From the NCBI GenBank assembly GCA_019639235.1, contig JAHBSG010000003.1:2446-66445 (forward strand): DNA of 64,000 bases, written 5' to 3'. The stretch's first letter is position 1. Each line of letters starts with the position of its first letter. Below the pieces are notes generated by a model. The model searched no databases, was not told the origin of the DNA, and saw only the letters and a program-made list of their open reading frames with translations. Made by a program: the position numbers and the translations under genes. Of the stretch, positions 26,458-64,000 are shown one piece after another. The DNA comes from Acidobacteriota bacterium. GTDB taxonomy: Bacteria; Acidobacteriota; Blastocatellia; Pyrinomonadales; Pyrinomonadaceae.

Positions 26458-26460
26458 TCG

Positions 26461-29609: not shown

Positions 29610-29610
29610 G

Positions 29611-34449: not shown

Positions 34450-35418
34450 AGATGAATGCGGAATTCGGGATAGTGTCAGTGGCCCGAACGTGAGGGAGGG
34501 CACGTTTTAGCGGCGAGGGACGAGTGACGGGTGACGAGGGTCGAATTCGGAATGCGGAATCTGGACCTCACCCCTCCGCAACTCTGTAACTCCGCAACTC
34601 TGCAACTTTCAAAACTTCGCAACTTCGAAACTATCCAAAACTTCCATATCATCCATATCTTCCGCCTCTCACGGATCGCCGTTCACTTTGGCTTGGAGTC
34701 CTAAGAGAATGGACGGCGGAGGTTAGTGAATCGTGAATCGTAAAACGTCAATAGTTCTTCGAGCAGAAACTTTGCGGGGCCTTTGCGGCTTTGCGGAAGG
34801 ACGATCTTAACGCAGAGCCCGCAGAGATCGCAGAGGCCGGAAAGAGGTTGCTGGATATTTGTAGCGATCAGCTCTAAGCCATTAGCCGTAAGCTGTTAGC
34901 CGGAAACCAAAGCCCAAATCTCAAAGTCCATTCTTAACCAATTCCCTATGATCCAATTAACAATTGACAATGCGACGATGCCGATCCCAAATCCCAAATC
35001 CGAAATCCCACATCGCAAATCCCCAGGCCCGGCCGCGTGTTCCATCTTTCCCATGCGTCCCATCTGTTCGCGATGTTTCCAATGTTTCTGATGTTTCCGA
35101 TGTTTCCGTTGTTTCCGCTGTTCGCGGTGTTTCCGCGAACGCCCGATGCCCGAAAAAAACAGAACGCCAAGAAATGCGGAATGCAGTGTCGGAGGCTCGC
35201 GCGTCAGCAAGGGCTCATCTTCGAGTTCGGAACTCTCGCAAGCCGGAACACGAAACCGTCTACCACCCCGTCCGCCGAGGCGGCGTCCACCGCTCCTTAT
35301 CAAGGAGGGGAGCTTTCGGAATTCGGAACCGCCGGCCGAAGCCGGGACTCAGAACTCCGAAACTTGGCAACTTCGCAACTCTGGAAACTATTTTCCGTTT
35401 CGGCTACACTTCGGGTAT
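34450..35418. repeat. Mosaic repeat region, right arm: at least 11 degenerate micro-arrays of period 7, 8 or 9 nt plus box copies
   Basis: Examples: 7-mers 34512-34560, 8-mers 'GCAACTCT' 34578-34633, 7-mers 'GTGAATC' 34726-34753, 9-mers 'CGCAGAGNN' 34811-34837, 7-mers 'CCCAAAT' 34986-35020, 9-mers 'TCCGATGTT' x11 35042-35140, 8-mers 35350-35389. Boxes at 34477-34501 and 35190-35214. Confidence 0.85.
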
Positions 35419-48296: not shown

Positions 48297-48755
48297 GTGC
48301 CCAACACTTCAGACCGGAGGTGGTCCGAAATGAACGACGGAACTGCAGAAATGCAAGAACGTGATATCTCTTCCCCGGACGATATCCCGACCGAACGGCC
48401 CGAATCGCGACCGGAACCCGGCGCCGCGGCGGGCGGTTGGTCGATGCCGCAGCCGGTCTTTCGCCAGTCGAGCGGATACACGCCGCAGCGAGGCCAGGCC
48501 GCAGCTGTTCCCGATGCCGCTCCGCCCGCATCAATGCCGGGCGGGCTCGACATCGAGCCTCAGCCCGACCTTCACGAGGCTGTTCCTGATGAGCCGGTAG
48601 CGGCCATGCCCGCTTCCTCGCCGGTAAAGGAAAAGAGCGGCCGGAGTGCTGTTTGGGCGGTCGTCACGCTCTTCGTCATCGCGGTGTTTGTCATCGCCTT
48701 TTCGGTCGGCGTGTATTTTCTGTTTTTCCGGGCCGGAAGTGACGGAGCCTTCTAG
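48297..48755 (+). CDS. Proline-rich hypothetical protein with C-terminal TM anchor
   Basis: ORF only. C-terminal 'AVWAVVTLFVIAVFVIAFSVGVYFLFF'. Start uncertain; alternative ATG at 48330. Confidence 0.4.
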   Translation: MPNTSDRRWSEMNDGTAEMQERDISSPDDIPTERPESRPEPGAAAGGWSMPQPVFRQSSGYTPQRGQAAAVPDAAPPASMPGGLDIEPQPDLHEAVPDEPVAAMPASSPVKEKSGRSAVWAVVTLFVIAVFVIAFSVGVYFLFFRAGSDGAF

Positions 48756-48873: not shown

Positions 48874-50406
48874 ATGCCTGAAGCGAAGCTCAAATTTGAC
48901 GACCGCGAGTTCTTTCTCGGTTCCGGCCTGGTGACCATTGGCCGTGCCACGGACAACTCCATCTCGTTCGCCGGCGACAGCAACGTCTCGCGCTACCACG
49001 TTGAGATCGAGCTCCGCGGCGAAGAGTTTTGCCTCATCGACCTCAACAGCAGCAACGGAACTACGGTAAATGGTGCCCCCGTCGAGGGTGAAATATATCT
49101 CGCCGATGGCGATGAAATACTGCTCGGCGGTTCTGCTGCACTGACCCTTGAATACGTAAAGGAAGGCTCCGCCGAGGCACCGGCAACGGCAGTTCCGGCA
49201 GCGTCGGGAACTGAAACAGCCGCGGAAGAAACTGCACCGGGAGACGAATCTCCGCAGGCGGCAGAAACCGAGGCCGGCGGCTCGAGCTCCAAAGGGCTTT
49301 TTCTCGCGGCGGGCGGCTTTCTTGCTCTTTCGCTGGTTCTCGGTGCCGGTGCGACCGCGTTCTACTTTTTGCGCGATACGAGCTGCAACGCCCGGGCCGT
49401 CATCATCTCACCCGAACCCGGCGATACGATAAGCAAGCCGACCGAGATCGAGGTTGAGATCGAGAACTCTGAGTGCGTTTCCCGCGTTGCATTTACCGTT
49501 GACGGTTTCGAGTTCGCCAGCGTTACCGGCTCGCCGTACACCGTTGAGCTCAACCCCGCCGATTTCGCTGACCTTGCCGATGGTTTTGACCATCCGCTCG
49601 GCATCGTGCTTGAGGACGAAAAGGGCGTTAAATTTACGACCAGCCCGCCGGTTCTTCTCGCTTTTGAGACGCGTGCAGTAAAGCGTGACGACGACGTGGC
49701 GAAGGATCAGACGACACAACCGGACGAACCGCAGCGGCCCGCAAAGACGGGCGGCCCGAGCCTTGTTGAGGTCCACGATCTTTCGCGCAAGCTTCTTGCC
49801 CAATTCAAGGGCGGCGACCGTTACAACATCTCGAACCGCCAGCTTCTACAGGAAGTTCAGCGAAAGACGGCCGATTACGCACAACCCGGATATTCGGCTA
49901 AGGCATCGCAGTTCAAAGATGTGATCAACGTCGCCTTCGTCCGCGAGCAGAACCTCGATGCCCCGCTCGGCTTTTTCCTTGCAATGAGCCGCAGCCGGTT
50001 CGATCCGGCACGGCAGGGTACGGAGGAAGGCCTCTGGCGGATGTCGCCAGAATTCGTCAAGGCAAATGCTTACGACGGCCTCTGCGGCGGGCAGACCATA
50101 GCCGACCCGAAGCAGGATTGCGCCGCACTCGCCGCCGGCCTCTATATGAAGTCTATGGTTCTTGGAGCTTTCGAAGGCGATGTTCTTCTCGCGGTCGCGG
50201 CGTTCGGCAAGTCGCCGCAGGAAGCCGGCGAATGGAAAGCGACTCTGCCGCAGAACCGGACCGATCTCTGGAACGCTATTAAGACGCCGGCCGAACGCGA
50301 ACAGCTTGTCCGCTTTCTTGCGGCCGGTATCGTGGCTGAAAATCCGCAGCGGTTCGGCCTCGCAAATGAGCGGCCGCTGTCTGAACTTTACCGCATCGCG
50401 ATGTAA
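48874..50406 (+). CDS. FHA - TM - Ig-like - degenerate SLT-like domain protein (paralogue 1)
   Basis: FHA 'GRATDNSISFAGDSNVSRYH...DLNSSNGTTVNG'. TM 'GLFLAAGGFLALSLVLGAGATAFYFL'. C-domain 'FFLAMSRSRF...GLWRMS...FLAAGIVAENPQRFG'. Confidence 0.8.
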   Translation: MPEAKLKFDDREFFLGSGLVTIGRATDNSISFAGDSNVSRYHVEIELRGEEFCLIDLNSSNGTTVNGAPVEGEIYLADGDEILLGGSAALTLEYVKEGSAEAPATAVPAASGTETAAEETAPGDESPQAAETEAGGSSSKGLFLAAGGFLALSLVLGAGATAFYFLRDTSCNARAVIISPEPGDTISKPTEIEVEIENSECVSRVAFTVDGFEFASVTGSPYTVELNPADFADLADGFDHPLGIVLEDEKGVKFTTSPPVLLAFETRAVKRDDDVAKDQTTQPDEPQRPAKTGGPSLVEVHDLSRKLLAQFKGGDRYNISNRQLLQEVQRKTADYAQPGYSAKASQFKDVINVAFVREQNLDAPLGFFLAMSRSRFDPARQGTEEGLWRMSPEFVKANAYDGLCGGQTIADPKQDCAALAAGLYMKSMVLGAFEGDVLLAVAAFGKSPQEAGEWKATLPQNRTDLWNAIKTPAEREQLVRFLAAGIVAENPQRFGLANERPLSELYRIAM

Positions 50407-50418
50407 AATAAGAGAAGG

Positions 50419-51873
50419 ATGCTCGAGGTTCGACTCAAGTGCAAAGGCCCGGAAGGCGAACGTACAATAACGGTCGCCGAGGGCCGCATTTCGTTCGGCC
50501 GCGGGAGCGACGCCGACGAGCGTTTTGAGGACAACAGCCTTTCGCGGCTCCACGCAACGCTTTACCGCGAGGGCGACCGTGTTTGGATAGTTGACGATAA
50601 TTCGTCGAACGGCACGTTCGTAAATGGCGATGCGGTTCCGGCCGTCGGAAAACCTCTCGCAAATGGCGACCGCATCAAACTCGGCAACGACACCGTTCTG
50701 ATGGTCGAGATCGCAGCTCCCGCAAAGGCGGAAGCTCCTAAAGCTGCGGCGGCATCTCCCGGGATCACAGCTTCTTCCGGTGTGCCCTCCGGACTCGGCC
50801 TGCTGCCGATCGTGATGATCGGCTTTGCATTCATGATCGTCTCGCTCTCGCTTGCACTCATCGGCTACAAGCTTCTCGGTTGGGGTGAACCCGCCGTTGT
50901 TCGAGCCGATGACGATGTCGAATTTTCCGATCCGGAGCCGCGAAGTTCTCGCGACAGCGACCCGAAAAAAACGCCCGATTCCCCATCGAACTCGGGAAGC
51001 TCAACGTCAGGCTCGACCTCATCGAGCGATTCCAACTCGAACGAACCGCTCGATATCAAGACCCCCGAATCGTCAAAGCCCGAGCCGAGTGTAATTCCTC
51101 AAGGCAAGCGGTATCTCGACCTTTCGGAAGACGAAAAGCGAAAGTACGTAGCTGACCGCTCGATGCGTATCGCCGCCATCATTGGCAATAGTTCCAGCGA
51201 TACGATCCCCGCCGAGGCGGTCGAAAAGATCAAGAGCTTTACCGATGCCTATGCCAAGCGTATCAATGTAAAGCCGCTCGGCGGCTGCCGCTTTGGCGAT
51301 AACCTGCAGGCGACCTACGAGCGGGCAAGCAAGAACGCCCCGTTCATCGTCCGGGCGTTCAACGCCCGCGGCATCGACCCGCGGATCGGTCTTTATCTAG
51401 CGATGATCGAATCCGAGCATTGCGTTTGCCTCCAGAGCCCGACCGGTCCGCTCGGAATGTTCCAGTTCACTAAGGCGACCGGCGAGAATCACGGGTTGAA
51501 GACGATCAGCGGTGCCTCGCCAAATAACCCGGATGAACGCTGCGAGCCGGAGCCCTCGGCACGGGCGGCTGCGTCTTATATGAAGTCTCTGACGGGAAGA
51601 TATGGCACCGGGCCGGCAAGTGTTCCGCTCGCGATCGGCTCATATAACAGCGGCGAGGGCGGCCTCAGTTCGAACCTGGTGAAGGCGCTCGAATCAGGTT
51701 CGGGCCTGCCGCGAGATTTTTGGACGCTGATCTCGAAAGGCGATATGCTCTCCAAGCAGTTTCAATCAGAGAATTTCAAATACGTCCCCAAATTCTTTGC
51801 CGCGGCGATAGTTGGAGAATTTCCGCAGGACTTCGGTCTAAAGCTTCAGCCGGTTTCGACCTACACGAAATAG
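50419..51873 (+). CDS. FHA - TM - lytic transglycosylase (SLT) domain protein (paralogue 2)
   Basis: FHA 'GRGSDADERFEDNSLSRLHA...DDNSSNGTFVNG'. One TM and an S/D/P-rich linker. SLT signature 'LYLAMIESEH...TGPLGMFQF...IGSYNSGEGG'. Confidence 0.85.
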   Translation: MLEVRLKCKGPEGERTITVAEGRISFGRGSDADERFEDNSLSRLHATLYREGDRVWIVDDNSSNGTFVNGDAVPAVGKPLANGDRIKLGNDTVLMVEIAAPAKAEAPKAAAASPGITASSGVPSGLGLLPIVMIGFAFMIVSLSLALIGYKLLGWGEPAVVRADDDVEFSDPEPRSSRDSDPKKTPDSPSNSGSSTSGSTSSSDSNSNEPLDIKTPESSKPEPSVIPQGKRYLDLSEDEKRKYVADRSMRIAAIIGNSSSDTIPAEAVEKIKSFTDAYAKRINVKPLGGCRFGDNLQATYERASKNAPFIVRAFNARGIDPRIGLYLAMIESEHCVCLQSPTGPLGMFQFTKATGENHGLKTISGASPNNPDERCEPEPSARAAASYMKSLTGRYGTGPASVPLAIGSYNSGEGGLSSNLVKALESGSGLPRDFWTLISKGDMLSKQFQSENFKYVPKFFAAAIVGEFPQDFGLKLQPVSTYTK

Positions 51874-51887
51874 GCCCGCCGAGAAAG

Positions 51888-53243
51888 ATGATGAGCGAAC
51901 TTCGGCTCAAATTCGTTGATCAGGATGGCATTGACCGCTCCGTCGCGGTCGAAACGGACGAGTTCGTTCTCGGCCGGCAACCCGGCTCCGACCTCGTGCT
52001 TCCATTCCCCGGCGTTTCCCGTGAGCATGCGATGATCGAACGAAGCGGCCCGGATTTCATAATCCGCGATCTTGGCTCGAGCTTCGGCACGAAAGTTAAC
52101 GGCATTCCCGTAGTTGGGCTCAAGACATTGCATAACGGCGACGAGATCGACGTCGGCGATTCAGTAATCTTGGAGGTTGACATCGCAACAGCGGCTGCAT
52201 TCACGCAAGAACCGAGGCCTGCAGCACCTGAGGCATCGGCGGCCACGGTCTCCACCGCACCAATGGAGAGCACTCCTGCGGCATCGTCGTCCGCTCCCGT
52301 CCCCGCACCGGCAACGGCGGCAGCCGGCGGGAGCAATATGATCTGGCTCGCCGTGCTTGCCCCGCTTACGGCGGTATTTCTGCTCGCATTTATCGGCGGC
52401 GGGTTATATCTCTGGAACACGAGCGGGCAAACGAACCGCGACATTGTCAGCAATTCTGACGACCGGTTCGCGGATGACCTCGACAATGACTCACCATCGA
52501 ACTCAAAAGACGACTACATCGGCGGAACAAGTTCAAGTTCGAGTTCCTCGCCAAGGCCGAACACTAACAGCGGTAGCTCGAGCAGTTCTTCGAGCACAAA
52601 CTCCGGAACGACGCCCCCTCCGGTGAACAGCACGGTTACGCCGCCGGACTCCGAACTCGGAAAGGTCGAGCGAAATGCCGCCCTGTTTATGCGGAAAGCT
52701 GCCCGCAACGATCCTCGAGCATTCATCACATCTGAGCATGCCGGCCGCGTCCAGGCAAAGATCCGCGAAATGGCCGGTTCGCCCGCAGTTGCGGCAAATC
52801 TCGAATCTGCGAGAAAAAACTCGTCAAGCCTTTCCTCGCTTGCCAATGCGAATGGCCTCAAGCCGCAGTTCCTGGTAGCTGCGGCGTTGGGTAAACTCGG
52901 CACCTCGCGCGGCGACGTGCTCCAGACCGCCCAAGGCATGGTTGAAGTGCTGGCAAAGCTCAACGCACAGGTCGGCGCTGAACGCGGTGATGACGCCGCC
53001 GTTCTCATTGCCGCCTATCAGCAGGGCGTCGCGGGCGATTTTCTGAAGATGCGGAATATGCTCCAAAAGCTTGCGACCGACTTTCCCGAAAGCTCTCGTG
53101 AGATCAGGTCGATCTGGTTCCTCGAGCAGAAGCAAAAGATCACCAAGGCTGAGTTCGATAATGCACTTCGGTTCCTCGCCTTCGGGACGCTGATGCAAAA
53201 CCCAAAGGATTTCGGCGTCAATTCAGAGCCGCTCAGCGATTAG
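51888..53243 (+). CDS. FHA - TM - degenerate SLT-like domain protein (paralogue 3)
   Basis: Trimmed to 'MMSELRLKF'. FHA 'GRQPGSDLVLPFPGVSREHA...DLGSSFGTKVNG'. One TM and a Ser-rich linker. C-terminal 'FLAFGTLMQNPKDFG' is shared with paralogues 1 and 2. Confidence 0.8.
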   Translation: MMSELRLKFVDQDGIDRSVAVETDEFVLGRQPGSDLVLPFPGVSREHAMIERSGPDFIIRDLGSSFGTKVNGIPVVGLKTLHNGDEIDVGDSVILEVDIATAAAFTQEPRPAAPEASAATVSTAPMESTPAASSSAPVPAPATAAAGGSNMIWLAVLAPLTAVFLLAFIGGGLYLWNTSGQTNRDIVSNSDDRFADDLDNDSPSNSKDDYIGGTSSSSSSSPRPNTNSGSSSSSSSTNSGTTPPPVNSTVTPPDSELGKVERNAALFMRKAARNDPRAFITSEHAGRVQAKIREMAGSPAVAANLESARKNSSSLSSLANANGLKPQFLVAAALGKLGTSRGDVLQTAQGMVEVLAKLNAQVGAERGDDAAVLIAAYQQGVAGDFLKMRNMLQKLATDFPESSREIRSIWFLEQKQKITKAEFDNALRFLAFGTLMQNPKDFGVNSEPLSD

Positions 53244-53279: not shown

Positions 53280-54110
53280 ATGCAGGAAAATGAATGGGTC
53301 ACCGGCAATGTGACCATCTCGATCAACGGCCAGCCGCTCTCGATGACGATGACCGTCCCGGCCAATCGCGTGAAGCCGCACCGTATGCTGCCGATCTTTC
53401 AGCAGATGTCGAACACCTTCGTCGATATGGGCGTTTCGGAGGTCGAATCGGCAGGTAAGGCCATCTCCTGCAAGGCCGGATGCGGCGCATGCTGCCGACA
53501 GCCGGTGCCGGTCTCTGAGATCGAGGTCTATCACCTCGCCGAGGTCGTTGAATCGCTCCCGGAACCGCGGCGGACAGAGGTAAAACAGCGTTTCCGCGAT
53601 GCGATGGAACATTTTCGCTCGATCGATTGGTTCGGGCGCGTTCAGCAGATCCGAGAAGTGGTCGAAGAGGACGGCAAGGAAGAAGGAATGCGGCAGCTTT
53701 CCGAGCTGACGACCGAGTATTTCCGCGAGGGCGTCGCGTGTCCGTTCCTGTTCGAAGAGAGCTGTTCGATCCACAAGGACCGTCCGGTCGCCTGCCGCGA
53801 GTATCTCGTAACAAGCCCGGCCGAGAACTGTTCCTCGCCGACGGCCGAGACCATCGACCGCGTTCCGATCGGCATTTCGCCCTCAAAAACGCTGACAAAT
53901 GTTGGAAATACCGGTCGGCTCGCAAACATAGCTTTGCTGCCGCTGATCAGGTCGCTTGAGTTGGCCGAACAATTCCCGGAAAAGTTCGTAGAAAAGACCG
54001 GCGAGAAATGGATGGCGGACTTCTTTACGATGCTGACGCACAGCGAGATACCGGACTCGGCGCGAAAGAAACCGGCGGGCACATCCGGCACCAATGGCCG
54101 AAGGCATTGA
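53280..54110 (+). CDS. YkgJ/UPF0153-type cysteine-cluster (CxxCxxCC) protein
   Basis: 'CKAGCGACCRQPVP' plus downstream 'CPFLFEESCSIHKDRPVACREY'. No signal peptide. Confidence 0.7.
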   Translation: MQENEWVTGNVTISINGQPLSMTMTVPANRVKPHRMLPIFQQMSNTFVDMGVSEVESAGKAISCKAGCGACCRQPVPVSEIEVYHLAEVVESLPEPRRTEVKQRFRDAMEHFRSIDWFGRVQQIREVVEEDGKEEGMRQLSELTTEYFREGVACPFLFEESCSIHKDRPVACREYLVTSPAENCSSPTAETIDRVPIGISPSKTLTNVGNTGRLANIALLPLIRSLELAEQFPEKFVEKTGEKWMADFFTMLTHSEIPDSARKKPAGTSGTNGRRH

Positions 54111-54190: not shown

Positions 54191-55543
54191 ATGAGCAGAT
54201 ACCGCAAAGTCGTCTGGAACGAGGGGATGCTCCTGACCCCGCATCATTTCCAGCAGTGGGACAACTACTTCGAAGGCTTGCTCAACTCGCGGGTCGATGC
54301 CGTAAAGCAATATGATTATGGCGTTCTGGAGCTTCAGGTCAGCAATGAAGCGATCGCGAACGGCAACTTTCAACTCATAAACTGCCGTGCCGTAATGCCG
54401 GACGGTCTGTTCGTCAATGTGCCTGATGCCGAAGCGGTCCCGGATATGCGGCCCGTTGGCGACCACTTCCGTGTTGAGCAGGAAAAGCTTGGCGTCCATC
54501 TTGCGATACCGGCGAAAAAGGCCGGCGAGGCAAATTTTCAGGCAAACGGTGCAAAACCGAGCTCAACGCTCCGCTTTCTGCAGGAAGGAGCGATGGTCAA
54601 GGACGAAACGACCGGCTCCGGCGAGCAGCCGATAGCCTACGCAAAAAGCAATCTTCGGATCATCTTTGACGACGAACTTCGCGACGGCTTCACCTCAATG
54701 AAGATCGCCGAACTTCAGCGAACGCCGACCGGACAGATCAAGATCTCAGACGATTATATTCCGCCGATACTGAAAGTCACGGCCTCGACATGGCTTGTAA
54801 ACATGCTTCGCCAGATGGTCGAGATCCTGATCACCAAGAGCGGAAGCCTCGGCGAGCAGCGGCGGCAGCGGAATGCCTCGCTCGCAGACTTTACGACCTC
54901 GGAGGTTGCCGTCTTTTGGCTGCTTCATACGATAAATTCGTCGATCCCGACGATGTCGCATTACTTTCGGTCGCCGCTCATCCACCCGGAGCAGCTCTAT
55001 ATAGAGATGGGCGAACTTGCCGGAAAGCTGATGACCTTTTCGCTCGAGCACAACCCGAAGGACATCGTAAAATACGACCACGACGACCTGTATTTCACGT
55101 TCTACAGCCTTTCGCTGCAGCTTCGCGACCTGCTTGAAACGGTCATCCCGAGCCGCTGTGTACAGATCCCGCTTGAGAAAACGCGCGATACGCTCTACGT
55201 CGGCCGGATCGACGACGAACGCCTTCTCAAAGAGGCCGGTTTCTACCTCGCCGTCCGCGCACAGATGCCGGAATCGAAGCTTATCGAGGGCGTTCCACGC
55301 GTAGTGAAGATAGCCTCGCGGGACGTCATCGATTCGGTCATCGGCTCCGCTCTGCCGGGCGTAGTGTTGACACACGCGAGCCCGCCGCCGGCACCGATCC
55401 CGGCCCGCGTCGGCTTTAAGTATTTTCAGCTCGATTCGATCGGGCCTTATTGGAACGGCATCGCCGGGTCAAAGGTGGTCGCCGTCTATGTCCCGAACGA
55501 GATACCGGACGAAAAGCTCGAGCTTTACGCAGTAAAACCGTAA
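54191..55543 (+). CDS. tssK: Type VI secretion baseplate protein TssK
   Basis: N-terminal 'KVVWNEGMLLTPHHFQQWD' is typical of TssK/ImpJ. 450 aa. Confidence 0.9.
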   Translation: MSRYRKVVWNEGMLLTPHHFQQWDNYFEGLLNSRVDAVKQYDYGVLELQVSNEAIANGNFQLINCRAVMPDGLFVNVPDAEAVPDMRPVGDHFRVEQEKLGVHLAIPAKKAGEANFQANGAKPSSTLRFLQEGAMVKDETTGSGEQPIAYAKSNLRIIFDDELRDGFTSMKIAELQRTPTGQIKISDDYIPPILKVTASTWLVNMLRQMVEILITKSGSLGEQRRQRNASLADFTTSEVAVFWLLHTINSSIPTMSHYFRSPLIHPEQLYIEMGELAGKLMTFSLEHNPKDIVKYDHDDLYFTFYSLSLQLRDLLETVIPSRCVQIPLEKTRDTLYVGRIDDERLLKEAGFYLAVRAQMPESKLIEGVPRVVKIASRDVIDSVIGSALPGVVLTHASPPPAPIPARVGFKYFQLDSIGPYWNGIAGSKVVAVYVPNEIPDEKLELYAVKP

Positions 55544-55555
55544 GCGATCAGATAA

Positions 55556-56233
55556 ATGGCAGAAGGTGTCCTTAAAAAAGATCTGATAACATTCGCCGGG
55601 CCGATATTCGACCTGATACTCCGGCTTAAGGCCGGCATCGTCGCGCCGTCAAATGACCTTCGTCCGAAGATCGCCGGTATGCTTGAGGAATTCGAAAAGC
55701 GTGCCGAGCGCTACCGGTTCAATCACAAGATCGTCCAGGTCTCAAAATTTGCCCTCGCCGCATTTGTCGATGAAACGGTCCTGACCAACGACTTTCACCT
55801 CAAGAACGAGTGGGAAAAGAACCCGCTCCAGCTTGAATACTTCGGCGAGCAGCTTGCCGGAAACAAATTCTTTGAGAAGCTTGAGTCGATGATCAAGCAG
55901 ATCGAGGTCACGCAGGAGGCCGTCGAGGTCTATTATTTTTGCATGCTCCTCGGCTTTAAGGGCCGCTACGCGATCTATGAACACGAAAAGCTTCTTGCGA
56001 CGATGGAGCAGACCGCAAAAGCACTCGTAAAGGTTGGAAGGATCAGGCCGGTCGACCTCTCACCGCACTGGCTCTCAAGCGACCAGCCAAAGCCGCCCGA
56101 GAAACGCGGAATGCCCGTTTGGGCAAAAATCGGGGCCGTTGGCGGTCTAGGTTTAGGGATTATCGTTTACCTTGTGATGTTCGTAATGTCGTCACAGTTC
56201 ATGCAGCAGGCGATAAACCGGCTCGCGATGTGA
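55556..56233 (+). CDS. tssL: Type VI secretion membrane protein TssL (DotU family), no peptidoglycan-binding extension
   Basis: 'AAFVDETVL...W...PLQLEYFG' and 'EVYYFCMLLGFKGRY'. A single C-terminal TM is followed by only about 15 residues. Confidence 0.9.
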   Translation: MAEGVLKKDLITFAGPIFDLILRLKAGIVAPSNDLRPKIAGMLEEFEKRAERYRFNHKIVQVSKFALAAFVDETVLTNDFHLKNEWEKNPLQLEYFGEQLAGNKFFEKLESMIKQIEVTQEAVEVYYFCMLLGFKGRYAIYEHEKLLATMEQTAKALVKVGRIRPVDLSPHWLSSDQPKPPEKRGMPVWAKIGAVGGLGLGIIVYLVMFVMSSQFMQQAINRLAM

Positions 56234-56344: not shown

Positions 56345-59300
56345 ATGTCCAATTGGCACGTCGGACAACTTAAGTTCGCACTCGGGCTTGGCTCGATAAT
56401 GTCGTTCTATGGCGTCGTCACGTTCATCGTGATGATGATGCCCGAGGGCAGCGTCGGACGTAACCAGAAGATCGTCGTGATTGTTCTCGTACTGCTCACG
56501 ATGCCGTTCACGCTGTTGGGCGGATACCTAGCAGCCCGACGTTCACGAAAAAAAGAGGAAAAAGCAAAGGCAGAAGCCGAGGCAAAAGCCGGTGAAGGCC
56601 AGCAGGCCGCTCAACCAGCGGCCGGAACGGCAGCATCGGCAGTCGCCGCAGATGCAACCGCTCTCGCGGGCCTCGAAGAGGTCGTTCAGTTCATTAAGAC
56701 GTCAAATCTTGGCAGCGGCGGCAAGGACGCGATCTACTCACTTCCATGGTATCTCGTCGCTGGTGCCCCAAAGGCCGGCAAGAGTTCGCTTGTAATTGGC
56801 TCGAACCTCAATTTCCAGAACCTTCCGAGCCAGCGGCAATCTGAGCTCAAGATCGTCCGCCCGACACCTAACGTGGATTGGCGCGTCACCAGCGAAGGCG
56901 TCTTCATCGACACAGCCGGTCGTTATGGTAGCGAGGGTATTGATGGCGAAGAGTGGGCCGCCCTGCTTGAGGCCATTCGCAAATATCGCCCAAACCGGCC
57001 GATCGACGGCTTTATCCTGACCGTTGATGTAAACACCATCACCAAAGGCGACGAGCGGCAGAACGAAGAGCACGCAAAGGTGCTCCGGGCAAGGCTCGAC
57101 GATACGCTACAACGGCTAAAGGTGAAGTTCCCGGTCTATCTGGTCTTTACGCAGGCCGATTCGATCGAAGGCTTCCGCGATTCGTTCTCCGCCTCAAAGA
57201 AAGAGGACAAGACGCTCGTTTGGGGTGCGACGATCCCAATCGAGAAAAGCGAAAACGCACAAGCGTCCTTCGACAGCGAGTTCGAAGTGCTGCAGGATGC
57301 CGTAATGCGGCGGCGGCTCTCACGGCTTTCGGCACCGTTTCCGGCCGTCCGCCAGTTGAGGATCTTCAACTTCCCGCTCCATTTCGGTGCGGCCCGTCGG
57401 AAATTCGGTTCGTTCGTCAATGCCCTTTTCCGGCCGAACCCGTTCAGCGAGAATCCGTTCTTCCGCGGCTTTTATTTCACATCGGCACCGGGAACAAAGG
57501 GCAGTGGCAACGTCCCCGTCACCGTAGGTAATACTTATTTCACCGAGCGTCTCTTCAAGGACGTCATACTCCGCGACCGCGACGTCGTACGAACCTTTCA
57601 GGCTCAGCAGCAGCGGGCCCCGATCTTCGGTTGGGTGTTGACATTCATCGGAGCGATGATCGTCCTCGGACTGCTTGGGCTGACCGCGGTCTCGCTCGTT
57701 TCGAACAAGCAAATGCTCGACGAAGCGGCGAGCGTCGGCGACAAGGGCCTTGCCCTCCGTCGTGCCGACCTGAACCGCGACATCCTCACCAAGAAAGAGG
57801 ATGAGGTCCGCGAAGAGCTCCGTGTCCTTGAGGGAATGCGGCCGATGCTCGCAACGCTGGACGATAACAACCGCAACGGTGCCCCGCTGTACATGCGGAT
57901 GGGGATGTACTCCGGCAACGGCATTTATCTCCAAAGCTTGTTGCCGCTCTACATGAACCTCGTTGAAAAGAGGTTCAAACAGCCCGCGATCCGTAAGCTC
58001 GAGGCCGAACTCAAGCAGTTTGCCGAGAGCGGCCAGCTCGCCGGCCGCGACGACATCGAACGCGAAGCGAGCCTCAACAAGAATTACAATCTGCTCAAAG
58101 CGTATCTGATGCTTTCGGATGGGTCGCAGCAGATCGACGGAAAGACCGTTCGCTACCGCGAAAAGGCCGAAGCGACGCACATAGCCGCGACGCTCCGTGA
58201 ATACTGGCTAACCGAGTCGAAGGTCCCGAACGATATGAAGGCGACGGCCGAGATGCATCTTGACTTCTGGTCACGACAGATCGACCGTGCCGAAGGGCTC
58301 GGCGAGTTTCCGCGTATCCAGCTCAATGCAAAGCTCGTCGATGAAGCACGGCGAAAACTGCAGGCCTTCCCGGCGGTCAATCGCTATTACAGCAATCAGG
58401 TCAGCCGCATTTCCCGCGAGATCGACGACAAGATCGGCCCGACGACGGTCGAATCGATGGTCGCCCGCGGCGGTGCTGATACGAGCCTGTTGACCGGAAC
58501 TTACCGGGTTCCGGGTGCATTCACCAGGCCCGGTTTTGAACTGATGAAAACGGCCATCGCCGAGGCGGATTCGAAACTCGCCGAAGACGATTGGGTGATG
58601 GGCGAACTCGGCAAGCGCCAGCTTGTTCAGGCTCAGGCGACCGATGCCGCCAAGCTCGAGGACCTCTATTACCGCGATTACGCTGACCACTGGCGAAAAT
58701 TCGTCCGCGGGACGCAGCTCCGATCGTTCGAGAAGCGTTCCGACGCGGTCGATGCCTTCCAGGTGCTCTCCTCGGCCAATTCGCCGCTCAAGCGGATCGT
58801 GATCGAGGTCGAGAACAACACCAATCTTTCGAAAAAGATCGATGGCGGCGGCTGGCTCGACTGGATCTTCAGTTTCTTCTCAAAGAAGAAAGAAGAAGGC
58901 CCGGGCAACACCCAGCCGGAAAAGGAATTCCGCCCCGTGACGACCTTTGTCGGCAAGCCCGAGCAGGGCGAAAATGCCCCGATCGAGAAGTATCAGTCCG
59001 AGCTCCAACGTGTTTATACCAAGCTGAGTACGGTCAATGACGACCAGTTCCGCCGGGCCATTGAGGAAATGGCGAACGAGAAGGATCCGCTCGATGTCAA
59101 TAAGCGCGAGCAGGCCGTCAACGGGCTCGTTTCCGCATTTAACGAAACGCCCGCAGGCCAGGAAGTAGCAACTCTGCTCCAGCAGCCGATCTTGAACCTC
59201 AAGAACCTGCTCGGTGCCGGCGTCAAGCAGCAGATAGAACGGACTTGGCGTGACAGCATTCTGCCCGATGCGAAGGCCCTCGAGGCTCTCTATCCCTTTG

Positions 59301-59941
59301 CCGATGGCCAGCAGGAAGCCGATTTCGAGACCATCTCGCGGTTCCTGAGCCCGACCGAGGGCAAGCTCTCGAAGTTCTATGACGAACGGCTCAAGAACTA
59401 CTTCGAAGAGGTCGGCGGACAGCTCAAGTTGCGTGACACGGCTGACATGCAGTTCACGGACGAATTCGTCGCTTACCTGAACAATGCGTTCGCACTGCGG
59501 CGGGCGTTCTTTGGCTCAAGCCCGACACCTAAGTTCGACTACGAGTTCAGCCTAAAGCCTTCGCCCGACGCTGTCATCGAGGTTTCGATCGACGGCCAGA
59601 AGATCACCTCCGAGGGCACGGGCTCGATCCGCGGAACCTTCCCGGCCGCTCAATCAAGCGAGACGGGCGTCGCGATCAATTTGGTCTCGACCGCCGCGTC
59701 ATCGGCCAACACCTCGACCGGAACTACGACCGCCACATCGGCGCCGCCATTTGCTGGCAAGTGGGGACTCTTCCGGTTCGTTGAGGCCTCGAAGCCGCAG
59801 AAACAGGCCAGCGGCGAATACCTGTTGAGCATTTCGGCCGGCGGCAAGTCGATCGGGGCGACGATCAAATCGAGCAGCGGCGACCTGTTCGACAAGCAAA
59901 CATTCCAGAAGGTCAAAGCTCCTGACAAGGCTTTGAAATAG
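56345..59941 (+). CDS. tssM: Type VI secretion membrane protein TssM (IcmF family)
   Basis: 1198 aa. Two N-terminal TM, P-loop 'GAPKAGKSS', third TM around 'IFGWVLTFIGAMIVLGLLGL', large C-terminal periplasmic part. Confidence 0.9.
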   Translation: MSNWHVGQLKFALGLGSIMSFYGVVTFIVMMMPEGSVGRNQKIVVIVLVLLTMPFTLLGGYLAARRSRKKEEKAKAEAEAKAGEGQQAAQPAAGTAASAVAADATALAGLEEVVQFIKTSNLGSGGKDAIYSLPWYLVAGAPKAGKSSLVIGSNLNFQNLPSQRQSELKIVRPTPNVDWRVTSEGVFIDTAGRYGSEGIDGEEWAALLEAIRKYRPNRPIDGFILTVDVNTITKGDERQNEEHAKVLRARLDDTLQRLKVKFPVYLVFTQADSIEGFRDSFSASKKEDKTLVWGATIPIEKSENAQASFDSEFEVLQDAVMRRRLSRLSAPFPAVRQLRIFNFPLHFGAARRKFGSFVNALFRPNPFSENPFFRGFYFTSAPGTKGSGNVPVTVGNTYFTERLFKDVILRDRDVVRTFQAQQQRAPIFGWVLTFIGAMIVLGLLGLTAVSLVSNKQMLDEAASVGDKGLALRRADLNRDILTKKEDEVREELRVLEGMRPMLATLDDNNRNGAPLYMRMGMYSGNGIYLQSLLPLYMNLVEKRFKQPAIRKLEAELKQFAESGQLAGRDDIEREASLNKNYNLLKAYLMLSDGSQQIDGKTVRYREKAEATHIAATLREYWLTESKVPNDMKATAEMHLDFWSRQIDRAEGLGEFPRIQLNAKLVDEARRKLQAFPAVNRYYSNQVSRISREIDDKIGPTTVESMVARGGADTSLLTGTYRVPGAFTRPGFELMKTAIAEADSKLAEDDWVMGELGKRQLVQAQATDAAKLEDLYYRDYADHWRKFVRGTQLRSFEKRSDAVDAFQVLSSANSPLKRIVIEVENNTNLSKKIDGGGWLDWIFSFFSKKKEEGPGNTQPEKEFRPVTTFVGKPEQGENAPIEKYQSELQRVYTKLSTVNDDQFRRAIEEMANEKDPLDVNKREQAVNGLVSAFNETPAGQEVATLLQQPILNLKNLLGAGVKQQIERTWRDSILPDAKALEALYPFADGQQEADFETISRFLSPTEGKLSKFYDERLKNYFEEVGGQLKLRDTADMQFTDEFVAYLNNAFALRRAFFGSSPTPKFDYEFSLKPSPDAVIEVSIDGQKITSEGTGSIRGTFPAAQSSETGVAINLVSTAASSANTSTGTTTATSAPPFAGKWGLFRFVEASKPQKQASGEYLLSISAGGKSIGATIKSSSGDLFDKQTFQKVKAPDKALK

Positions 59942-59985: not shown

Positions 59986-60795
59986 ATGAACGACGCAAAA
60001 CTAGCATTGGACAAGGGCGACCTGAAATCAGCTGTCGAATCGGCGATCAATTTGGTTCGGACAAACCCGACCGACGCCGCGGCCCGGATTTTCCTGTTCG
60101 AACTTTCCTGCTTCTCCGGCGACTGGGAACGGGCCGAAAAGCAGCTTGATTTCATCGGCCACCAGGACACGGCAGCGATGATCGGCTCAAAGATCTACCA
60201 GCAGAATTTCAAGGCGGAACGCGACCGCCTGAAGTATTTCTCCGATGGCCTGAAGCCCGAGACGATGACGGCGGTGCCGCCCTACGTCACAGAACTGATG
60301 GATGCCAACAACCGCGTCCGCGAAGGCAATGTGGCCGAAGCTCGAGTGATCCTCGACCGTGTCGAAGAAACACGGCCCGCCTTCAGGTGCTCGGTCAATG
60401 GCGAAGGCTTTTCGGATTTCCGCGACTATAACGACCTCACGATGTGCGTCTTCGAGGTGATCCACAAGGACGCCTATATCTGGCTGCCGATGGACCAGAT
60501 CATCAAGATCGAGTTCCCGAAACCCGGCACGCTCCGCGATCTTTACTGGATCCAGGCGAACATCGAGCTCAAGAACGGCACCGGCGGCGAAATGTTCGTC
60601 CCGGCTCTCTATGCCGGCACGTGGAAGAGCGAGAACGACCAGGTCCGGCTCGGCCGCATGACCGATTGGCGCGACCTCGGCGACGACCTTTTCCAGGGCG
60701 AAGGAACCAAGCTTTTCTGGATGGACGGCCGGGATAAGTCGATCCTGGATATCCAGACGATCGAGTTCCATCATGAGGCAGCTGCCGAAGCGTAG
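59986..60795 (+). CDS. tagJ: Type VI secretion accessory protein TagJ (ImpE family)
   Basis: 'NPTDAAARIFLFELSCFSGDWERAEKQLD' closely resembles the ImpE/TagJ N-terminus. Confidence 0.85.
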   Translation: MNDAKLALDKGDLKSAVESAINLVRTNPTDAAARIFLFELSCFSGDWERAEKQLDFIGHQDTAAMIGSKIYQQNFKAERDRLKYFSDGLKPETMTAVPPYVTELMDANNRVREGNVAEARVILDRVEETRPAFRCSVNGEGFSDFRDYNDLTMCVFEVIHKDAYIWLPMDQIIKIEFPKPGTLRDLYWIQANIELKNGTGGEMFVPALYAGTWKSENDQVRLGRMTDWRDLGDDLFQGEGTKLFWMDGRDKSILDIQTIEFHHEAAAEA

Positions 60796-60915: not shown

Positions 60916-62061
60916 ATGAGCGAAGAGCTGCGAAAACCTAGTGTGATCGATCTTGAGGCGTTGCTTTCACCTATTTCTGAAGAAGCTCCGTCAGGCGAAA
61001 GCCTGCGCTACTCGGGGCTTTACGATGAGGTTGCCGAGGCCCGCCGGGCCGATGACAACCTGAACCTCGGTGAATGGCAGACCGAACTCAAGGTCGCCGA
61101 TTACCGCAAGGTGAAGGACCTCGTCATTCCCGCCCTCTCGACCCAGACCAAAGACCTTCAGCTTGCCGTGTGGCTCTGCGAGGCTCTCGTCAAACAGGAC
61201 GGCTTCGTTGGCCTCCGCGACGGACTCGACCTGTTGCGGCTGCTGCATGAGCATTTTTGGGAATCGATCCATCCCGAAATAGATGAAGGCGATATGGAAG
61301 GCCGGGCGAACGCCATTTCCTGGTTCGAATCGACCTGCGGACTCGCTATCAAGGGTGCTAAGGTCACGGGAAGTGCCGGCTATAGTTACATCGATTGGGA
61401 AGATTCGAAGGTTTTCGATATTCCCGAGGGCCTCGAAAGCTTCAGCACCGAAGATCAGGTCAAGTACAACCAACTCCGCGAACAGGCCGAGCGCGAACGC
61501 CGTGTAACGGCAGACATGTGGCGGAAGGAATGGGCCGCGACCCGCCGAGCATTCGCCGAAGAGGTCAATTTTGTCATTAAAGAGTGCTTCGAAAGCCTCA
61601 AGGCCCTGATCACGGTCGTTGATGACAAATACGACCGCAATCAGGTCCCGAGCCTTCTCAACCTTAAGAAATCGCTCGACGATATCGAACTTCTCATCAA
61701 GAAGCTTCTCGAAGAAAAGCGAGCCGAGGAGCCGGACGAGAGCGATGAGGCCGAGGGGACCGAGATCGTCAACGAAGACGGAACGGTTACCGTTGTCGCC
61801 GGTGCGGCCGTCCCGGCAGGTGCTATCCAGAACCGCCGCGATGCTCTCAAACGCCTCGACGAGATCGCCGAGTTTTTCCGCAAGACCGAGCCGCACAGCC
61901 CGGTCGCCTATCTCGTCCAGCGTGCCGTCAAATGGGGTCATATGCCGCTTGAGAACTGGCTGCAGGACGTCATCAAGGATGAGACGATCCTTTACCAGCT
62001 CCGGCAAACGCTCGGGTTCAATACGTCGCAGCAGGGCTCCGAGGACCAGACGTCGGTATAG
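60916..62061 (+). CDS. tssA: Type VI secretion protein TssA (ImpA_N domain, short form)
   Basis: 'SPISEEAPSGESLRYSGLYDEVAEARRADD...TKDLQLAVWLCEALVKQDGFVGL'. Confidence 0.9.
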   Translation: MSEELRKPSVIDLEALLSPISEEAPSGESLRYSGLYDEVAEARRADDNLNLGEWQTELKVADYRKVKDLVIPALSTQTKDLQLAVWLCEALVKQDGFVGLRDGLDLLRLLHEHFWESIHPEIDEGDMEGRANAISWFESTCGLAIKGAKVTGSAGYSYIDWEDSKVFDIPEGLESFSTEDQVKYNQLREQAERERRVTADMWRKEWAATRRAFAEEVNFVIKECFESLKALITVVDDKYDRNQVPSLLNLKKSLDDIELLIKKLLEEKRAEEPDESDEAEGTEIVNEDGTVTVVAGAAVPAGAIQNRRDALKRLDEIAEFFRKTEPHSPVAYLVQRAVKWGHMPLENWLQDVIKDETILYQLRQTLGFNTSQQGSEDQTSV

Positions 62062-62127: not shown

Positions 62128-62643
62128 ATGCCAACAAAAGAAAGTCTGCAACACAAGATCGACCGCGTCCGACCGCCGCGTGTACAGATCACTTACGATG
62201 TCGAGGTCGGCGGAGCGATCGAACTGAAGGAGCTTCCGTTCGTCATCGGCGTTATGGGCGATTTCAGCGGCAAACCGGAAGAGCCGCTCCCGGCCTTCAA
62301 GAACCGGAAGTTCGTTGAGATCGACCCCGACAACTTCAACCAGGTCCTGGCCGGTATGACACCGCGGCTCGCCTACACCGTGGACAACAAACTGCAGGAT
62401 GACGGAAGCAAGATGGGCGTTGAACTTAAGTTCAACAACATCGAGGATTTTGAGCCGGACAACATCGTCCAGCAGGTCGATCCGCTTCGCAAGCTCGTCG
62501 AGGCCCGGCAGAAACTCGCCGACCTTCGTTCAAAGATGGACGGAAACGAGAAGCTCGAGGGCATGCTTGAGGAGATCATTGCTGATGCCGGAAAACAGAA
62601 AGAGTTGAGCGACCAGCTCGGACTTGGGGCGAAGGAGGAATAG
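62128..62643 (+). CDS. tssB: Type VI secretion sheath small subunit TssB
   Basis: 'RVQITYDVEVGGAIELKELPFVIGVMGDFSG'. Shine-Dalgarno 'AAGGAGA' lies upstream. Confidence 0.95.
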   Translation: MPTKESLQHKIDRVRPPRVQITYDVEVGGAIELKELPFVIGVMGDFSGKPEEPLPAFKNRKFVEIDPDNFNQVLAGMTPRLAYTVDNKLQDDGSKMGVELKFNNIEDFEPDNIVQQVDPLRKLVEARQKLADLRSKMDGNEKLEGMLEEIIADAGKQKELSDQLGLGAKEE

Positions 62644-62649
62644 TAGATT

Positions 62650-64000
62650 ATGGCAGCCAAGAAACAAGAAGAAGCCGCCGTGCAAACGGTGGAAACCGCC
62701 GAGGAAGGCGGACTGCTTGACAAGATCTTGACAGAGGGCCGGATGGCCCGTGACGACTTCCAGAAAGAGCGTGCCAAGGACATGATCTCGGAATTCGTCA
62801 ATCAGGTAATGTCCGGCGAATTGACGATGACCAAGAACATGGACGTCGCCATCAATTCGCGTATCGCCGAGATCGACCGCCTGATCTCGGCACAGATGAA
62901 CGAGATCATGCACCATGAGGACTTCCAGAAATTGGAAGGATCTTGGCGTGGCCTCCATCACCTGGTCAAGAATACGCTTACCGGGCCGCAGCTTAAGATC
63001 CGCGTCATGAGCGTGACGAAGAAGGACCTGCTCAAGGACTTCGAACGGGCCCTTGAGTTCGACCAGTCAACGCTCTTCCGCAAGATCTACGAAGAAGAAT
63101 ACGGCACCTTCGGCGGTGCTCCGTATGGTGCCCTGATCGGCGATTTCGAGTTCGGCAACCATCCGCAGGATATGGCCCTTCTCGAAAAGCTCTCCGAGGT
63201 CGCCGCGGCCGCCCACGCGCCGTTCCTGAGTGCCGCTTCGGCCGACATGTTCGGCTGGGACACTTTCTCGGAAATGACCGAGGTCCGCGACATCACGAAG
63301 ATCTTCGACCGGGCCGAGTATATGAAGTGGCGGAGCTTCCGCGAGTCGGAAGATTCACGCTACGTTGGCCTTACGCTTCCTCACGTTCTTATGCGCGAGC
63401 CCTACGGTGCGGCGACCAAGCCGACCGAGAGCTTCCGCTTTGAAGAGAACGTGGATGGCACTGACCACAAGAAATACCTCTGGGGCAATGCCGCTTATGC
63501 TCTCGGCACGCGGCTGACCGAGGCCTTCTCGATGCACGGCTGGTGCGTCGCTATCCGCGGCGTTGAGGGCGGCGGCCTTGTTCAGGGCCTTCCGACCCAC
63601 ACCTTCCAGACCGACGAGGGCGAGGTCGCGATGAAGTGCCCGACCGAGGTGGCGATCACGGACCGCCGCGAGAAGGAGTTCTCGGACAACGGCTTCATTC
63701 CGCTGGTCCACTGCAAGGGCACCGACTACGCGGCATTCTTTGCCACGCAGTCTGCCAATAAGGCGAAGAAGTATGATACCGATGCTGCCAATGCCAACGC
63801 ACGGCTTTCCTCGCAGCTGCAGTACATCTTTGCCGTCTCGCGTTTCGCTCATTATCTCAAGTCGATGATGCGCGACAAGATCGGTTCGTTCATGTCGCGG
63901 CAGGAAGCCGAGCGTTTCCTTAACCGCTGGATCACGAAATACGTGCTCGAGAATGACGTGGCACCGGCCGACCAGAAGGCGAAATATCCGCTTCGCGAGG
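62650..64000 (+). CDS. tssC: Type VI secretion sheath large subunit TssC (3' end off-window)
   Basis: ATG at 62650, open to the window end. My own translation gives 'FQKLEGSWRGLHHLV' and 'YGAPYGALIGDFEF', typical of TssC. Absent from the ORF track because there is no stop in the window. Confidence 0.9.
   Translation, partial: MAAKKQEEAAVQTVETAEEGGLLDKILTEGRMARDDFQKERAKDMISEFVNQVMSGELTMTKNMDVAINSRIAEIDRLISAQMNEIMHHEDFQKLEGSWRGLHHLVKNTLTGPQLKIRVMSVTKKDLLKDFERALEFDQSTLFRKIYEEEYGTFGGAPYGALIGDFEFGNHPQDMALLEKLSEVAAAAHAPFLSAASADMFGWDTFSEMTEVRDITKIFDRAEYMKWRSFRESEDSRYVGLTLPHVLMREPYGAATKPTESFRFEENVDGTDHKKYLWGNAAYALGTRLTEAFSMHGWCVAIRGVEGGGLVQGLPTHTFQTDEGEVAMKCPTEVAITDRREKEFSDNGFIPLVHCKGTDYAAFFATQSANKAKKYDTDAANANARLSSQLQYIFAVSRFAHYLKSMMRDKIGSFMSRQEAERFLNRWITKYVLENDVAPADQKAKYPLRE

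Follow-up and report, generated by a model that had tools for sequence, protein, structure and literature searches.

How the membrane complex of a type VI secretion system (T6SS) crosses and grips peptidoglycan is understood in only a few proteobacterial models, namely those of MltE recruitment, of TagL or an evolved TssL, and of TagX, and the nucleation of T6SS assembly by Fha is still debated. The lytic transglycosylase (LT) MltE is required for the T6SS of enteroaggregative Escherichia coli and is not encoded in its locus, and T6SS accessory genes often compensate for missing core features, as the TsmK-type genes do for a missing TssJ (PMC13584744). Canonical Fha, made up of an FHA domain, an intrinsically disordered region and an amphipathic helix, starts assembly of the membrane complex and the baseplate (bioRxiv 10.1101/2023.12.21.572528). 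Here we describe three tandem genes, A, B, and C, in a T6SS locus on a 64-kb stretch of DNA (the window) from a metagenome-assembled genome (MAG) of the Pyrinomonadaceae (Acidobacteriota). By profile and structure comparison, their products are three paralogues whose periplasmic domains appear to derive from one extended family-1 LT, and the trio is probably one enzyme (B) and two conserved pseudo-enzymes (A and C). Nothing resembling this module is listed in a catalogue of accessory genes of the T6SS from 2026 (PMC13584744), and a full-text literature search returned no paper joining FHA, SLT, and T6SS and none on acidobacterial T6SS accessory genes. This agrees with an earlier reading of the DNA (the sequence-only reading), which did not recognize the trio as a described T6SS accessory module. 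The case is wholly one of comparative inference, drawn mostly from uncultured bacteria.

The sequence-only reading placed three consecutive plus-strand open reading frames (ORFs) here, each encoding an FHA domain, a transmembrane (TM) helix, and a C-terminal domain, and we confirmed all three at the coordinates below.

48874-50406, plus strand: gene A, 510 aa
48931-49128, plus strand: FHA domain of A (residues 20-85; Pfam FHA, E 2.9e-18)
Between FHA domain and TM helix, plus strand: Ala/Glu-rich, disordered linker of A (composition)
49297-49368, plus strand: TM helix of A (residues ~142-165; hydrophobicity)
49399-49563, plus strand: Ig-like Big_7 domain of A (residues 176-230; Pfam, E 4.7e-8)
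49762-50403, plus strand: LT-fold domain of A, predicted pseudo-enzyme (residues ~297-510; AF2 and Foldseek)
49990-49992, plus strand: Arg373 of A, at the position of the catalytic Glu (alignment)
50419-51873, plus strand: gene B, 484 aa
50488-50685, plus strand: FHA domain of B (residues 24-89; Pfam FHA, E 1.2e-15)
50794-50868, plus strand: TM helix of B (residues ~126-150; hydrophobicity)
Between TM helix and LT module, plus strand: Ser-rich, predicted periplasmic linker of B (composition)
51100-51870, plus strand: extended family-1 LT module of B (residues 228-484; Pfam SLT and PDB matches)
51409-51411, plus strand: predicted catalytic Glu331 of B (motif alignment)
51888-53243, plus strand: gene C, 451 aa
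51966-52157, plus strand: FHA domain of C (residues 27-90; Pfam FHA, E 7.8e-16)
Between FHA domain and TM helix, plus strand: Ala/Pro-rich linker of C (composition)
52338-52406, plus strand: TM helix of C (residues ~151-173; hydrophobicity)
After the TM helix, plus strand: Ser-rich linker of C (composition)
52650-53240, plus strand: all-alpha domain of C, putatively LT derived (residues 255-451; AF2 and hhalign)

With Pfam FHA E values of about 1e-15 or lower, three tandem FHA-TM proteins are not a chance finding. The longest ORF over gene C opens at 51720; we took the ATG at 51888 as its start because the gene calls of relatives are 450 to 451 aa long and the N terminus is conserved. The gaps are short: 12 bp between A and B, 14 bp between B and C, 36 bp between C and a gene for a CxxCxxCC protein, and 80 bp between that gene and tssK. 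This packing suggests an operon-like arrangement, and a promoter and terminator scan of the stretch from A to tssK showed no convincing terminator and was otherwise uninformative. The architecture had been taken as uniform, and an FHA domain, one TM helix, and an LT-derived domain do recur in all three proteins, but A has the additional Ig-like domain. A shared helix, (F/L)(F/L)A(A/F)(G/A)xxxxxNPxxFG, closes A, B, and C and is invariant within the families in alignments. The regular expression originally quoted for it captured this genuine motif, but B departs from that expression at two positions (FFAAA..GEFPQDFG).

The periplasmic module of B is the clearest of the three. It matches Pfam SLT (PF01464) over residues 313 to 418 with 53.2 bits against a cut-off of 21.3 bits (E 2.6e-14), and its sequence matches in the PDB are the T7 gp16 transglycosylase (E 1e-9) and Pseudomonas aeruginosa MltD. 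E331-S332, G346-M-F-Q-F, and S408-Y-N-S-G correspond to the catalytic Glu-Ser, the GLMQ-type motif, and the AYNxG-type motif, respectively. Across 32 sequences with 60 to 86% identity to B, the stretches YLAMIESEH...GPLGMFQFT and SYNSGEGG do not vary, and the catalytic Glu is retained in about 100 of 106 representatives. B is thus a true member of family-1 SLT and predicted to be the sole catalytically competent copy of the trio. An effector or immunity role was also considered for the SLT domain of B and was ruled out, as it has no PAAR/VgrG/Hcp/Rhs/MIX linkage, is anchored in the inner membrane of its own cell, and is joined to an FHA domain.

In the AF2 model of A (pLDDT 88), the periplasmic part consists of an Ig-like domain and an LT fold. 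Foldseek matched this model to MltD in the PDB (8rhf, E 9e-5) and to Slt and MltE at a probability of 1.0, and the C-terminal domains of A and B are homologous by hhalign (97.6%, E 4e-12). Pfam SLT does not match A of the window, and a distant A orthologue reaches 21.0 bits. Among Pyrinomonadaceae, A has an invariant LAMSRSRF with Arg in place of Glu, and distant orthologues have R, Q, E, or V there. The family has GLW(R/Q) and AC(F/Y)G instead of the GLFQF and AGYN motifs. This pattern indicates that A is an LT in fold and not in chemistry, i.e., a predicted pseudo-enzyme.

The periplasmic domain of C is modeled by AF2 as all helical (pLDDT 95.8). Foldseek gave only sub-threshold matches of low root-mean-square deviation in the PDB, to g-type lysozyme, MltE, and MltC (TM scores of 0.38 to 0.44, E of about 1), and nothing significant in the BFVD viral library. 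Homology was detected at the profile level. An earlier, narrow comparison of B with C by hhalign gave only 66.7%. When a broad C profile, built from Pyrinomonadaceae and distant C orthologues, was aligned with the B-type module in its broad form, the value rose to 98.7% (E 2.5e-16, 183 columns). In this alignment, a gap of about 38 residues in C removes exactly the ES...GxFQF active-site segment. C orthologues are present in distant loci (blastp, E 3e-40). C is therefore probably best described as a homologue of the LT module that has lost the catalytic segment, again a predicted pseudo-enzyme. All three C-terminal domains had been called SLT-like. A and B are LT derived, and C probably is, as judged by Pfam and PDB matches for B, Foldseek for A, and profile-profile homology for C, but only B matches Pfam SLT itself.

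Alignments of the A, B, and C families show little or no variation at the canonical phosphothreonine (pThr) contact residues of FHA domains, GR, SRxH (Ser-x-x-His), and NG(T). A, B, and C each have one strongly hydrophobic segment of 19 to 25 residues and a C-terminal domain of 200 to 340 aa of the periplasmic-enzyme type, and no signal peptide was found in any of them. Low-complexity linkers rich in Ala, Pro, Glu, and Thr lie on the predicted cytoplasmic side in all three proteins, and linkers rich in Ser, Asp, and Pro lie on the predicted periplasmic side in B and C. Because an FHA domain needs cytoplasmic phosphoproteins, an LT needs peptidoglycan, and signal peptides are absent, A, B, and C are probably bitopic inner-membrane proteins with the N terminus in the cytoplasm and the C terminus in the periplasm.

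The trio had been placed directly upstream of tssK; this does not hold, as a 276-aa CxxCxxCC gene sits between. The genes downstream of C are as follows.

53280-54110, plus strand: cytoplasmic CxxCxxCC protein, YkgJ-like (Zn/Fe chelating), 276 aa (Pfam PF03692, E 8.4e-8)
54191-55543, plus strand: tssK, baseplate (Pfam T6SS_VasE, E 2.9e-130)
55556-56233, plus strand: tssL, short "ancestral" form (Pfam DotU, E 4e-44, residues 10-206 of 225; NCBIfam TIGR03349)
56345-59941, plus strand: tssM (Pfam IcmF-related_N, IcmF-related, and IcmF_helical)
59986-60795, plus strand: tagJ/impE (Pfam ImpE, E 4.8e-35)
60916-62061, plus strand: tssA (Pfam ImpA_N, E 1.5e-35; TIGR03363, E 2.8e-88)
62128-62643, plus strand: tssB (Pfam T6SS_VipA, E 1.3e-61)
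62650-64000, plus strand: tssC, cut at the window end (loci L001-L004)

Contigs with an identical TssB (L001 to L004) continue beyond tssC with hcp-tssE-tssF-tssG-clpV-vgrG. The CxxCxxCC protein has no signal peptide and is not TssJ, although its gene occupies the "TssJ slot"; it is possibly an additional T6SS accessory gene. Between gene A and vgrG (the window plus L001 1-20516), there is no T6SS-SciN-type match for tssJ. The C-terminal IcmF_C of TssM reaches only 19.6 bits, under the Pfam cut-off of 26.7, and together with the lack of TssJ this suggests an atypical membrane complex. TssL was said to lack a peptidoglycan-binding extension, and Pfam, NCBIfam, and the sequence bear this out: the protein has 225 aa and stops just past its TM helix. 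Pfam found neither tagL nor an OmpA/MotB domain (PF00691) in A, B, C, TssL, or their neighbors, and the locus has no second or soluble Fha.

To follow the trio across relatives, we used a near set and a divergent set. For the near set, with one genome per GTDB species, B relatives were found in 175 genomes and the best 80 were taken, all Pyrinomonadales; counts take in only loci where the contig leaves room. B relatives are annotated as Pyrinomonadaceae or Blastocatellia, and one protein from an "Acidobacteria bacterium" MAG is 100% identical. Identity to the window protein among Pyrinomonadaceae is about 60 to 68% for B, 50 to 57% for A, and 40 to 45% for C. A precedes B in 75/75 loci, C follows B in 73/74, tssK lies downstream in 55/58, and the CxxCxxCC gene is present in 45/58. 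Of 58 species genomes of Pyrinomonadales, about 55 thus retain the order A-B-C-(CxxCxxCC)-tssK-L-M-tagJ-tssA-B-C.

When 1.84 billion representatives were searched with a profile, 227 proteins were returned at E<1e-30, with FHA-TM-SLT proteins at 270 to 360 bits among them. For the divergent set, metagenomes were scanned with an alignment of distant B forms, and this yielded 80 loci whose named members are Acidobacteriota or Blastocatellia. Here B is 37 to 50% and TssK 51 to 68% identical to the window proteins. A adjoins B in 28/28, and the next gene is usually a third FHA gene, an orthologue of C. The genes tssK-L-M-tagJ-tssA-B-C follow downstream in 12 of 15 (10 of 13 when near-identical contigs are left out), and the CxxCxxCC gene is also found in a few distant loci (L110 and L165). 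The upstream flank differs entirely from that of the Pyrinomonadaceae, which have a cystathionine beta-synthase (CBS) gene there. In L087, tssM is inverted and the linkage of the trio to tssK is kept. Because this linkage outlasts full turnover of the upstream flank and the tssM inversion, a functional tie between the trio and the T6SS is well supported, and adjacency to T6SS genes holds in both sets.

The junction of tssK and tssL in relatives is an insertion hotspot that takes up a secreted protein of about 185 aa, a toxin-antitoxin-like pair, or larger cargo (L010 15149-15694, L028 8576-9142, L032 14266-14835, and L049 15757-16388; 2-kb inserts in L035 and L074). These insert genes were considered as candidates for TssJ and ruled out as variable cargo.

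The flank upstream of the trio in divergent loci contains a PEGA+FGE-sulfatase protein with one or two DUF4384 proteins (16/17 loci) and often a trypsin/HtrA-like protease. An N-terminal Ser/Thr kinase (Pkinase) domain is fused to the PEGA-FGE protein in L087, L090, L103, L120, and L124; most distant loci have the PEGA+FGE-sulfatase gene without a kinase domain, so that the kinase fusion belongs to a subset only. The gene set lies at 3347-8408 in L087 and 6642-8731 in L092 and is also present in L090, L103, L120, and L124. We take COG1262 to be the FGE/SUMF1 family, and we found no paper joining TagR with the FGE family. TagR, the periplasmic activator of PpkA, is listed as COG1262 (PMC13584744). 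By analogy, the upstream PEGA-FGE/kinase set may be a TagR/PpkA-like sensory module.

Gene fusions connect the same domains in other ways. L087 (10001-11959), L100, and L102 have a B of about 650 aa with a C-type periplasmic domain at its C terminus, 49% identical to a free-standing C domain, and they have no C gene of its own. A direct fusion of FGE and SLT was also found (P0455). Because such B-C and FGE-SLT fusions occur, the periplasmic domains are likely to work together physically. Furthermore, the extended SLT module of about 255 aa is joined via one TM helix to a Ser/Thr kinase, to TIR_2, or to an adenylate/guanylate cyclase (P0411, P0428, P0466, P0477, P0487, and L170). Nearly all of these fused modules retain the catalytic Glu, and the idea that the kinase- and TIR-fused modules are pure sensor pseudo-enzymes was rejected on this ground. 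From their domain content, fusions of the SLT module via a TM helix to signaling domains, together with the direct FGE-sulfatase fusion, appear to form an undescribed family of peptidoglycan-directed transmembrane signaling proteins.

The trio resembles Fha1/TagH, which belongs to the threonine phosphorylation pathway, in its N-terminal FHA domains with pThr residues, disordered linkers, and a membrane-contacting element. It also heads a tssK-L-M operon, holds the only FHA proteins of the locus, and in many relatives has a kinase and FGE-domain neighbor. However, it matches TIGR03354, the T6SS-associated FHA protein, only in the FHA part (model positions ~14-158 of 420) and well below the cut-off of 120.25 bits (A, 41.0; B, 37.8; C, 44.2). 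Fha1/TagH is soluble or peripheral and a single protein, whereas the trio consists of three paralogues with a real TM helix instead of an amphipathic helix and a large periplasmic domain, in a window without PpkA/PppA. Like the dedicated LTs VirB1, EtgA, IpgF, FlgJ, and MltE, the last of which TssM recruits in enteroaggregative E. coli, B is an SLT protein with Glu-Ser that would serve an envelope-spanning machine crossing the sacculus. Unlike them, it has an N-terminal TM helix as its inner-membrane anchor, is fused to a cytoplasmic FHA domain, and is accompanied by two dead paralogues; it also differs from MltE in being encoded in the locus and from TagX, an L,D-endopeptidase of unrelated fold. 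A and C, as proposed anchors where TssL has no peptidoglycan-binding domain, would compare with TagL, TagN, TagP, and evolved TssL, being inner-membrane proteins of the locus with periplasmic C termini, but they lack OmpA/MotB (PF00691). Their putative peptidoglycan unit is a degenerate LT fold, with an Ig-like domain added in A. Mycobacterial FhaA/FipA (FhaB) and PknB-PASTA likewise couple Hanks-kinase/pThr-FHA signaling to peptidoglycan metabolism, and the kinase-TM-LT fusions mirror PknB-PASTA in combining a kinase with a peptidoglycan-directed extracellular domain. The trio differs from these systems in having no PASTA, in carrying the LT on the FHA protein itself, and in belonging to the T6SS locus of a diderm. 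As far as sequence comparison can tell, the module combines an Fha-like reader, a specialized LT, and a peptidoglycan anchor without belonging to any of these accessory families.

We favor the reading, at a probability of roughly 0.55, that the trio is a membrane-integral Fha equivalent that supplies peptidoglycan cutting (B) and peptidoglycan holding (A and C) for the T6SS membrane complex. A, B, and C would probably assemble as an inner-membrane hetero-oligomer whose FHA domains and disordered regions form the arms of a membrane-fixed Fha. These arms would dock at pThr sites that a Hanks kinase generates, with the kinase itself, TssL, or the linkers of A, B, and C as candidate targets. Such a kinase is found in the cluster in relatives outside the Pyrinomonadaceae and here would lie beyond the window or be absent. 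Docking would recruit TssL, TssM, and TssK and so nucleate assembly of TssKLM and the baseplate at one spot. There B would cut a gap in the peptidoglycan, and A and C would bind glycan strands and anchor or brace the TssJ-less complex. The module would then replace MltE recruitment, TagL or the peptidoglycan-binding domain of TssL, and possibly TssJ. The sequence-only reading had proposed a pThr reader coupled to wall remodeling or anchoring. Architecture and synteny support the coupling, but because the catalytic Glu occurs only in B, remodeling would be limited to B and anchoring or scaffolding to A and C.

Several observations weigh against this reading. The Asn of SSNGT in FHA domains usually touches the phosphopeptide backbone, and gene C of the window has GSSFGT for the family's GSSNGT, with Phe for Asn (52065-52082, residues ~60-65). 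The fold match of C is insignificant when taken alone. No Hanks kinase or PP2C gene was found by Pfam in the window (about 50 of the largest nonoverlapping ORFs of at least 100 aa) or downstream as far as vgrG, the side of tssC on which a search for kinase and phosphatase genes had been suggested, and dependence on pThr in the host is accordingly conjectural. A kinase partner therefore has no candidate in the window or downstream, but a kinase and/or FGE-domain gene stands directly upstream of the trio in distant Acidobacteriota. Vibrio cholerae and others keep tagH without tagE/tagG (PMC13584744), and by analogy this parallels the Pyrinomonadaceae state of FHA proteins without a cluster kinase. 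The unrelated CBS gene is as syntenic as tssK within the Pyrinomonadaceae (upstream in 65/66), so synteny there is partly shared ancestry and not independent evidence. Six loci have the module and no T6SS genes within 8 to 10 kb (L076, L080, L042, L088, L090, and L100). L076, L080, and L042 are from Pyrinomonadales genomes. The trio is intact in L076 and the T6SS is absent within 8 kb; L080 has A and B only, and the next gene encodes an unrelated secreted protein of 722 aa; and in L042 (13100-21500) a CRISPR array and cas genes stand in the place of the T6SS, with A and C apparently truncated or frameshifted. Given these loci, the module may act elsewhere or independently of the T6SS, although separation of the trio from T6SS genes is confined to few genomes. 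Finally, the LT module also has kinase, TIR, and cyclase fusions in non-T6SS contexts, which fits a more general signaling role.

The best of the alternatives, which we consider possible but unlikely, is a trans-envelope sensor in which the LT-derived domains, above all those of A and C, would detect peptidoglycan damage or muropeptides, such as might arise when a neighbor attacks, and signal to the FHA domains, and thereby position or license T6SS firing. Such a sensor could be an acidobacterial analogue of the TagQRST-PpkA-Fha "tit-for-tat" pathway, with B generating or processing the ligand. It would account for two of three copies having lost catalysis while remaining strongly conserved, for the recurrence of the extended LT module as the extracytoplasmic part not only of Ser/Thr kinases and TIR proteins but also of a nucleotide cyclase and an FGE protein, as one would expect of a sensing or ligand-binding domain, and for the TagR-like/kinase gene that adjoins the trio in distant relatives. 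However, the catalytic Glu persists in almost every copy fused to a kinase, TIR, or cyclase domain, and this favors an enzyme over a pure sensor. In addition, a single TM helix leading to a nonenzymatic FHA domain has no obvious output unless oligomerized, and the window offers no kinase to receive it.

We regard as doubtful a structural role, in which the trio would be stoichiometric, SctD/YscD-like ring subunits of an unusual membrane complex without TssJ, or a TssJ substitute, with the LT fold as a scaffold and the FHA domains docking on the baseplate independently of pThr. SctD (YscD/PrgH/EscD), an inner-ring protein of type III secretion systems, and Myxococcus GltG/GltJ also have a cytoplasmic FHA-type domain, a single TM helix, and a periplasmic domain. 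Pfam Yop-YscD_cpl (PF16697) matches the FHA region of B at 46.8 bits (cut-off, 33.2) and those of A and C close to that value, about at the limit, and NCBIfam GltG matches also span the FHA region. The absence of tssJ and the sub-threshold IcmF_C of TssM would suit such a role, as would the precedent of TsmK among accessory genes that compensate for an absent TssJ (PMC13584744), and three paralogues with B-C fusions suggest a fixed hetero-complex. On the other hand, SctD has no pThr-binding residues, whereas the FHA domains of the trio keep them. The periplasmic parts of SctD and GltG/GltJ are unrelated to those of the trio, which has no ring-building motifs, no TonB-C-like domain, and long, disordered linkers and which sits in a T6SS locus. 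Moreover, the active site of B is invariant over deep divergence, and a pure scaffold needs none.

A general envelope module for peptidoglycan turnover or growth under a Ser/Thr kinase, FhaA/FipA-like and next to the T6SS by inherited synteny, is improbable: the intact or partial sets without an adjacent T6SS (L076, L080, L088, L090, and L100), the equally syntenic CBS gene, and the wide spread of the LT module in non-T6SS signaling proteins speak for it, but tssK adjacency holds at a TssK identity of 51 to 68% despite flank rearrangement and the inversion in L087, the genes are tightly packed on one strand, and FHA domains recur among T6SS accessory proteins, while this locus has no other Fha.

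If the membrane-integral Fha equivalent is correct, a pThr reader and a wall-cutting enzyme would share one polypeptide in a locus without TssJ, TagL, or a soluble Fha. B would be the first T6SS lytic transglycosylase encoded in the locus, and the trio would be the first integral-membrane Fha. One enzyme and two pseudo-enzymes would form a natural set for separating cutting from anchoring, and the module would give an entry into T6SS biology in the Acidobacteriota, an abundant soil phylum whose T6SS is essentially unstudied. The kinase-, TIR-, and cyclase-LT fusions point to a peptidoglycan-linked signaling family that may be the diderm counterpart of PASTA kinases. A broader and more speculative version, which we hold only tentatively, is that the trio is one case of a wider acidobacterial class of devices in which an LT module is wired via a TM helix to a signaling domain. 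Occupancy of the FHA domains by pThr would gate cleavage by B, or A and C would sense the state of the peptidoglycan for T6SS placement. Firing would then be coupled to the wall directly and in both directions, and a single module would stand in for TssJ, TagL, MltE, and soluble Fha.

Two further genes precede the trio in the window.

Upstream of the 48297-48755 gene: cystathionine beta-synthase (CBS) gene
48297-48755, plus strand: 152-aa Pro/Ala-rich protein with one C-terminal TM helix (tail anchored), between the CBS gene and A

The tail-anchored protein has no family match and is weakly conserved (30 to 40% identity), and it occupies the same position in many relatives. A scan of the whole window with Rfam gave no RNA family. 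Farther upstream, positions 23429-32421 on the plus strand hold a chemosensory cluster composed of a TPR-response regulator, CheW, a 542-aa protein without a family match, a methyl-accepting chemotaxis protein, and a CheA-CheW-REC hybrid kinase, with a GC content (0.61 to 0.64) above that of the rest of the window. It is followed at 32400-35150 by a region of lower GC content (0.53) with a strong AT skew and hardly any long ORFs.

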